Positions 7,919 to 8,162 of a DNA stretch of 64,000 bases are shown piece after piece (positions within the stretch are counted from its first letter, which is position 1; the number at the start of each line of letters is the position of its first letter). The stretch is from the NCBI GenBank assembly GCA_951406725.2, contig OX597835.1:2418001-2482000 (forward strand), in the 5' to 3' direction. The notes beneath the pieces are model-generated. The model had not been told where the DNA came from. It worked only from the letters and a program-made list of their open reading frames with translations, and ran no database searches. This stretch comes from Octopus vulgaris. Lineage: Eukaryota. The position numbers were made by a program, and so were the translations under genes.

Positions 7919-8032
7919 TGACAACAACAGTTATGAGCAGAGATGTCTGTATTACAAGGGCAAATCGGAAAACGGAGAAATACTCTGATTCATAAATATA
8001 TAATTATGTAGGTTTGTGACCGGTGTGTCACT

Positions 8033-8162
8033 TTACGCGCATTTGCATCCCTCCGTGGCGGACGTACAGAGACAGTCAGTGTCCTGACAACATGGAGCGT
8101 ATAATTTACTCTGCATAGGATTGCATCTCTCACCCACTGCTGCGCATGGGCGTGCTGGGCTT
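8033..8162 (-). CDS. Gene B, coding exon 3: (K)R|SPARPCAAVGERCNPMQSKLYAPCCQDTDCLCTSATEGCKCA*. Soluble 8-Cys knottin; not in the ORF track
   Basis: Minus-strand acceptor ttctctacatttacag|A, phase 2. Framework C-x6-C-x10-CC-x4-CxC-x6-CxC; TAA at 8035-8033. Confidence 0.88.

Follow-up and report, generated by a model that had tools for sequence, protein, structure and literature searches.

Gene B and its stop codon

In a 64,000-nucleotide stretch of Octopus vulgaris DNA (the window; C22:2418001-2482000, where C22 is the contig of the window), we analysed a small gene, B, together with the open frame behind its stop codon and its paralogues. Positions are window coordinates unless prefixed C22. 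Gene B is made up of the following parts:

11883..11952, reverse strand: coding exon 1, signal peptide; 23 codons plus 1 base, phase-1 GTAAG donor, located by a signal-exon scan
9943..9997, reverse strand: coding exon 2, spacer; 55 bases, two Lys-Arg (KR) sites, the second divided by a phase-2 intron
8036..8162, reverse strand: last coding exon, predicted 42-residue mature knottin; CAG acceptor before 8162, phase 2
8033..8035, reverse strand: stop codon TAA, one residue past the last cysteine, without an amidation glycine
7952..8032, reverse strand: post-stop open frame, 26 codons; decayed homologue of a hydrophobic tail of the type found in paralogues C and D, with its terminal stop in the register of D

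Gene B belongs to the CCWamide/agatoxin-like (CCWamide/ALP) family. It is intact and spliced and has three coding exons with 252 coding bases, 84 residues, GT/AG splice sites and introns of phases 1 and 2. Exon 1 is 72% alike to the signal exons of paralogue A and of Q, a soluble relative described below. The second KR site is split between exon 2, which ends in the Lys codon followed by AG, and exon 3, which begins with A. Because this KR, directly before the peptide, is the cleavage site, the mature product would have 42 residues, with a computed mass of about 4,376 Da for four disulfides, and B would encode a secreted 42-residue knottin. Its cysteine spacing (6-10-0-4-1-6-1) is identical in Q and is also that of D. 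The near-neutral peptide contains a single aromatic residue, the lowest number among 30 compared, and no Trp; the conserved Trp or other aromatic residue between Cys6 and Cys7 has been lost. Gene B is single-copy in the 2.8-Gb genome, and no database protein was found for it. Read on the reverse strand, 8164-7950 gives the eight-cysteine peptide, the stop at 8035-8033, 26 sense codons and a second stop at 7954-7952, which confirms the coordinates and the translation of the preliminary description.

Three of the 24 sequencing runs listed (X1, X2 and X3; three organism labels) contain the last exon of B. X1 and X2 come from one study, and the three together represent two studies. Compared over 7925-8350, the stop and the 81 bases after it did not differ in any of the three, at an intron divergence from the window of ~2.5%; the intron part of this region has six differences and one insertion in X1 and X2. 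The coding part of exon 3 has three differences, common to X1-X3, which correspond to 1 of 97 replacement sites and 2 of 29 synonymous sites (small numbers), and exon 2 has none in X1.

Moreover, one contig of X3 departs from the genome at 8164, and its further letters are those of window 9945-9972, as expected of the exon 2-3 splice. A second X3 contig covers exon 2 with 74 extra 5′ letters, as an exon 1-2 splice would give, with one mismatch, where the end of exon 1 differs from the end of the intron. An X3 contig spanning 7949-8100 covers the post-stop segment, which therefore belongs to the B transcript. Gene B is thus transcribed in at least one run. X13 and X4 do not cover the B exons, and none of the listed runs that contain a B exon is recorded as RNA; neither observation says anything on expression. 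The preliminary description had left room for an assembly error, a rare allele or an unexpressed gene. Because the same stop is present in diverged runs (3/3 of those covering it) and B is spliced in one of them, the first two are ruled out, and the third does not apply to X3.

The unchanged post-stop segment could also mean that the stop is partially read through and that the 26 codons still yield a longer isoform. The frame is open, and in X1 the 81 post-stop bases show 0 differences, whereas about 560 intron bases show 14. However, this contrast is not significant (p 0.11), the segment is no longer hydrophobic, and TAA followed by A, the context of the B stop, is a poor read-through context. 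We regard such an isoform as highly improbable.

The sequence behind the stop codon

It had been proposed that the post-stop codons align with the tails of three paralogues, whose exons in the window are:

3075..3291, forward strand: last exon of paralogue A, knottin plus 29-residue tail; signal exon 2.7 kb left of the window
17493-17559, 18652-18706 and 23519-23738, forward strand: paralogue C, 33-residue tail; O. bimaculoides orthologue P0017
32932-32863, 30629-30575 and 29298-29067, reverse strand: paralogue D, 31-residue tail; nearest to B in two of four DNA trees

At the DNA level, 29 paralogue regions were used as targets, most of them negative. Against C, D and two more paralogues, the 81 post-stop bases of B outscored 999 or 1000 of 1000 dinucleotide shuffles. 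Per 1000 random genomic segments, the score was equalled by 1 for D, 1 for a D-like copy, 5 for C and 30 for the fourth copy. With P, Q, the CCWamide gene and most copies of a second tail type (E type), no score above background was obtained. The comparison with A was marginal: 14 of 1000 shuffles and 31 of 1000 genomic segments were as good (z about 1). The claimed alignment therefore stands for C and D at the DNA level, shuffled controls included, and is marginal for A.

In addition, a DNA profile built from nine tails, with B excluded, ranked B (8027-7914) first among the non-family sequence within 864 kb (E 0.0049, 15.3 bits); the top chance match in 400 kb more reached 9.2 bits, and an anchored null gave 20 of 4000. 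Across 30 downstream regions, the profile matched the 11 tails of the A/C/D type and B, and none else. When the genome was searched with C, the alignment ran through the stop of B into the tail, and B ranked 9 of 15 (E 0.2), above every non-family match. In aligned blocks, the B tail is down to roughly 55-70% identity. In the two blocks shared with D, 20 of 27 and 21 of 33 positions are identical, in frame and with a terminal stop in the same register. The distance from the last cysteine to a conserved H-N-Y-I block is 30 bases in B and 30, 33 or 45 in the others, and the B offsets from the last cysteine over this block to the terminal stop are all in frame.

At the protein level the likeness is weak, and weaker than the preliminary description had implied. 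In an unanchored comparison, 475 of 3000 stop-free genomic stretches scored as well as the B tail (120 of 2507 after removal of microsatellite peptides), and the +1 frame of B scored equal to the true frame. The hydrophobicity of the tail is gone, as had been noted: its best 13-residue Kyte-Doolittle (KD) mean is 0.45, compared to 1.39-2.92 in the 24 tails of the first two of the four gene clusters described below. The post-stop DNA of B is genuinely homologous to the C/D-type tails, although much decayed.

Probable loss of a tail in gene B

DNA trees calculated without the tail columns, in which K, L, H and other near-identical copies were omitted, place B inside the tailed A/C/D subclade (91/91 in the reduced set) and, in two of four trees, next to D (85/77 and 73/72). 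B has the longest protein branch, yet its frame, eight cysteines, KR site and signal are intact. It does not have the amidation glycine that is seen in Q, in the CCWamide gene and in Argonauta P0011. Among the E-type tails, loss recurs through deletion, frameshift or truncation. Because the offsets are in frame, the amidation signal is absent and tails of the other type were clearly lost, anchor loss is favoured, and B quite probably lost a predicted anchor tail.

Alternatively, B might never have been tethered; its 3′ untranslated region would keep the T-rich source of the A/C/D tails, and the sister lineage would have lost the stop. The family ancestor was soluble, B keeps the ancestral cysteine spacing and the intron-split KR, and approximately unbiased (AU) tests do not reject the corresponding tree. 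Moreover, the two tail types share no homology, so that tail gain looks easy. On the other hand, the 3′ regions of Q, P, a P-like copy and the CCWamide gene do not match the tails, and the amidated C-terminal extension that the ancestral soluble forms carry is missing from B. In the best trees, B lies inside the tailed subclade, and the length offsets are in frame. An origin without a tether is, in our view, unlikely.

Anchor loss could also be an early pseudogenisation step in a birth-and-death family, with B as a transcribed, decaying duplicate. The long protein branch and the lost aromatic residue between Cys6 and Cys7 would be expected of such a duplicate, and broken copies and orphan exons are present in the family. 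However, the tail drifted while eight cysteines, both splice phases, the KR site and the signal were kept, and 2 synonymous differences stand against 1 replacement difference. Decay of this kind is distinctly improbable.

The best explanation of the whole, to which we assign a probability of about 0.55, is that B lost a predicted glycosylphosphatidylinositol (GPI) tail and is now a diffusible endogenous knottin. A soluble Q-like neuropeptide gene would have multiplied in the Octopus lineage, and the copies would have gained hydrophobic C-terminal tails, probably twice and plausibly by reading into T-rich 3′ sequence, which would direct GPI anchoring. The tail of B would have been lost through a stop in the last exon, a position from which the transcript would escape nonsense-mediated decay. 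The freed tail would then have drifted, whereas cysteines, signal and KR site were retained. Cleavage of the product at KR would set free a diffusible knottin of 42 residues, which likely modulates the animal's own receptors or channels.

Several observations weigh against this explanation. AU tests do not reject trees with B outside the tailed clade (p 0.13, 0.13, 0.24 and 0.26), the protein tree leaves B unplaced, and the in-frame offsets and the shared terminal stop would be equally expected if the tails arose by stop loss. Some tails have short spacers. The constraint figures of B are not significant (Fisher p 0.24), a third X3 contig contains exon 2 unspliced, and transcription of B was seen in one run, X3, which carries no tissue label. 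Protein searches, which are weak here (word-based, with a short B from a fast-evolving family), found no B orthologue in other named species. The earlier description of B as a derived secreted 42-residue knottin is borne out for an intact, transcribed gene with a predicted 42-residue product; the paralogue tree supports the grouping with A, C and D (91/91) and leaves the direction of change unproven (AU p 0.13-0.26).

A family of predicted tethered knottins

Knottin exons in which the cysteine pattern is intact number 50 and fall into four clusters of 16, 13, 5 and 16 exons (C22 2.42-2.75, 3.27-3.39, 7.55-7.73 and 15.89-16.04 Mb). This count comes from 1.15 Mb read of the 50.8-Mb contig and is a lower bound, and an exon need not be a whole gene; low-complexity cysteine runs (for instance, window 42963 and C22:3352693), a broken copy and another in which the cysteine spacing is altered were left out. 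A hydrophobic tail of 26-39 residues is present in 42 of the 50 exons. The eight tail-less exons are B, P, Q, C22:16019039, 15913708, 3384017, 7632851 and 7643390.

All 24 tails of clusters 1 and 2 have the anatomy of GPI-anchored proteins, with an N-terminal signal, a C-terminal hydrophobic stretch and no cytosolic tail. These tails have 26-39 residues, a 13-residue KD mean of 1.39-2.92 and 0-2 charged residues after the stretch, and by eye, small residues lie near the tail start in the tailed paralogues. The tethered state of these paralogues is a prediction from this anatomy. A single origin of both tail types was considered and rejected, as the A/C/D and E types share no detectable homology; tails probably arose twice.

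On C2, a single family gene was found, which ends in an amidated-Trp motif. The accessible part of the PMC8557429 supplement lists this gene and Q as CCWamides of O. bimaculoides and O. vulgaris; it also contains an orthologue of Q from Idiosepius, a pygmy squid, and soluble forms resembling Q from other molluscs. The Q protein is identical between the two Octopus species. Database proteins labelled Octopus vulgaris include exons identical to those of the window cluster, and eight tailed relatives are found among the proteins of O. bimaculoides. The sole Argonauta match, P0011, is amidated and tail-less, and tails have so far been seen in Octopus alone. As the family goes back to the soluble amidated CCWamide and its soluble member Q is conserved from pygmy squid to octopus, the soluble state is ancestral in the family and the tails are derived. 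The proposal that the tethered state is ancestral in the cluster therefore holds at most within the subclade of B.

The knottin loops are hypervariable. In six E-type tailed duplicates with near-identical signal exons, the pooled loop values were 0.78 for replacement (dN) and 0.22 for synonymous (dS) substitutions per site, with a tail dN of 0.05 and an adjacent intron difference of 0.048. In five C-like copies, loop dN was 0.41 and dS 0.26. The pairs lack independence, and the contrast could be inflated by misalignment or by gene conversion in the flanks. Database proteins of the family are all annotated as 'uncharacterized' or 'hypothetical'. In the literature searched, which mostly excluded subscription journals, CCWamide is mentioned in 8 papers; no account of octopus CCWamide paralogues that are tailed or expanded was found, nor any occurrence of six database identifiers of family members.

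The remaining family features of the window are:

43515-43578, 44248-44308 and 47024-47252, forward strand: exons of paralogue E, second tail type
60688..61478, forward strand: exons 1 and 2 of paralogue G; last exon 2 kb right of the window
49877..49940, reverse strand: orphan signal exon of E type; no knottin exon found behind it

An E-type tail remnant at 62535-62662 (reverse strand), behind a CA-rich repeat, comes with each duplicated unit (8 copies). Open frames at 13409-14470 (reverse) and 54566-56106 (forward) are retroelement-like, with motifs that we take to be of reverse-transcriptase and nuclease type.

Outside the window, gene Q (C22:2746304-2746457, reverse; signal exon about 23.5 kb upstream) is soluble and amidated, lies at the cluster edge and is the likely founder of the expansion. 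Gene P (C22:2618605 onward, forward) also stops early and ends in Gly; a hydrophobic in-frame stretch follows (KD 1.9), which matches neither tail profile. At C22:15910664-15916460 (forward), three last exons lie in tandem behind a single signal exon; a deletion has left the first without a tail, and the other two are tailed. These are possible alternative ends that would give soluble and tethered forms from one gene. C22:7632851 and 7643390 (forward) are E-type exons that form a duplicate pair; each has a signal exon of its own, and polar, basic sequence replaces the tail in both. A C-like copy at C22:15990552-15990770 (forward) has two in-frame stops, and O. bimaculoides P0006, the database protein that matches it most closely, is intact. 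Database protein P0002 (273 residues) joins exons of the four adjoining paralogues I, K, O and P and is probably a misannotation.

A proposed venom role for gene B

The preliminary description had regarded B as the best venom or secreted candidate. On this view, B would have shed its anchor and then been taken into venom or some other external secretion, on the model of three-finger toxins. The family combines identical signal exons with hypervariable loops in the mature peptide, a pattern typical of venom families. B also has a weak likeness to omega-agatoxins and spider knottins. Because CCWamide/ALP was recruited to spider venom, as stated in the accessible parts of PMC8557429 and PMC13311285, a venom role is possible, and it is unsupported for B itself. 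The hypervariability is located in the tailed copies, whereas B changes little between haplotypes, is single-copy and near neutral, lacks Trp and contains a single aromatic residue. It shows neither the copy expansion nor the accelerated change of venom genes. Moreover, the cysteine frame by itself would be expected to give toxin-like matches, and no match was above cut-off.

Motifs of B had 0 occurrences in the accessible supplements of an O. vulgaris salivary proteome (PMC7693380) and of a skin-mucus paper (PMC10138644), which is uninformative, as B may be absent from the databases of both. The main text of a 2026 cephalopod venom preprint had 0 occurrences of knot, agatoxin, neuropeptide, conotoxin and GPI, and no such peptide is named in the accessible part of PMC12607849. 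The ranking of B as the best candidate did not hold: it is one of eight tail-less exons, has the fewest aromatic residues and shows no accelerated change between haplotypes, and nothing that would place it in the venom gland was found. A venom role for B is doubtful.

Meaning of the family

We read B as the diffusible endogenous counterpart of what would be a cell-surface knottin family. That a stop codon can remove an anchor is already known, and B on its own adds a modest case; the family around B matters more, and an octopus family of hypervariable, predicted GPI-anchored neuropeptide knottins is bigger news than B itself. CCWamide/ALP is a conserved neuropeptide with an orphan receptor, expanded to about 50 copies in Octopus, in which knottin loops differ at about half of the replacement sites between duplicates with a 5% intron difference.

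As a tentative suggestion, octopus may have turned this diffusible peptide into at least 50 lipid-anchored hypervariable knottins, natural 'tethered toxins' on the cell that makes them. These would tune channels or receptors or serve recognition, with an anchor gained twice from 3′ non-coding sequence and repeatedly switched off, in B among others, which would yield diffusible versions. In octopus, such a tethered repertoire would be a new candidate for a code by which cell surfaces are recognised or channels tuned. The family offers natural tethered/soluble pairs for the study of anchor gain and loss, and probes for the orphan CCWamide/ALP receptor.

Comparison with known systems

B shares with spider omega-agatoxins the cysteine frame C-C-CC-C-C-C-C, together with weak profile and fold matches. 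Pfam PF02819 (Toxin_9) matched B with E 0.0023 and 18.6 bits, below the cut-off of 21.3; matches in PDB (E 0.07-0.1) and Foldseek (E ≥0.7) were likewise sub-threshold, and ESM Atlas gave leads under 0.9. The structure model of B has a predicted local distance difference test score (pLDDT) of 74, a predicted template modelling score (pTM) of 0.47 and a C-terminal hairpin. Most of its 22 Foldseek rows were knottins, none with E under 0.7.

For CCWamide/ALP genes, the accessible part of PMC8557429 describes three exons, a phase-2 intron in the basic cleavage codon, eight cysteines and an amidated aromatic end. In B we found three exons, the signal in the first and the peptide in the last, a cleavage site split by a phase-2 intron and the eight conserved cysteines; the aromatic residue that these genes often have between Cys6 and Cys7 and the amidated aromatic C-terminus are absent. 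The signal-spacer-peptide layout and the eight-cysteine frame are the same. In contrast, most B paralogues have a hydrophobic tail, which none of the CCWamides in the accessible part of the supplement of that paper has, and there are about 50 copies here versus a few. B is thus a derived paralogue in the CCWamide/ALP gene family and not a CCWamide neuropeptide in the strict sense.

Ly6/uPAR proteins have lost their anchor repeatedly, and a stop before the anchor has been proposed for three-finger toxins (accessible part of PMC10421932). As far as this source describes them, both families consist of tandem clusters of small disulfide-rich proteins with an anchor signal straight after the last cysteine (predicted here), with repeated convergent anchor loss, orphan exons and pseudogenes. 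The folds are unrelated. Furthermore, the anchor is ancestral in Ly6/uPAR, whereas here it is derived from a soluble neuropeptide, and snake three-finger toxins diversify explosively after anchor loss, whereas here diversification is found in the anchored copies and B is single-copy. The parallel drawn earlier with the path from Ly6 to three-finger toxins is therefore apt for the stop-before-anchor route and not for the starting point, as the anchor is derived here. B would relate to its tethered kin as the secreted SLURPs relate to anchored Ly6/Lynx. If the tethered-toxin suggestion is true, the path from Ly6 to toxin was run in reverse, and then forward again, within one genus.
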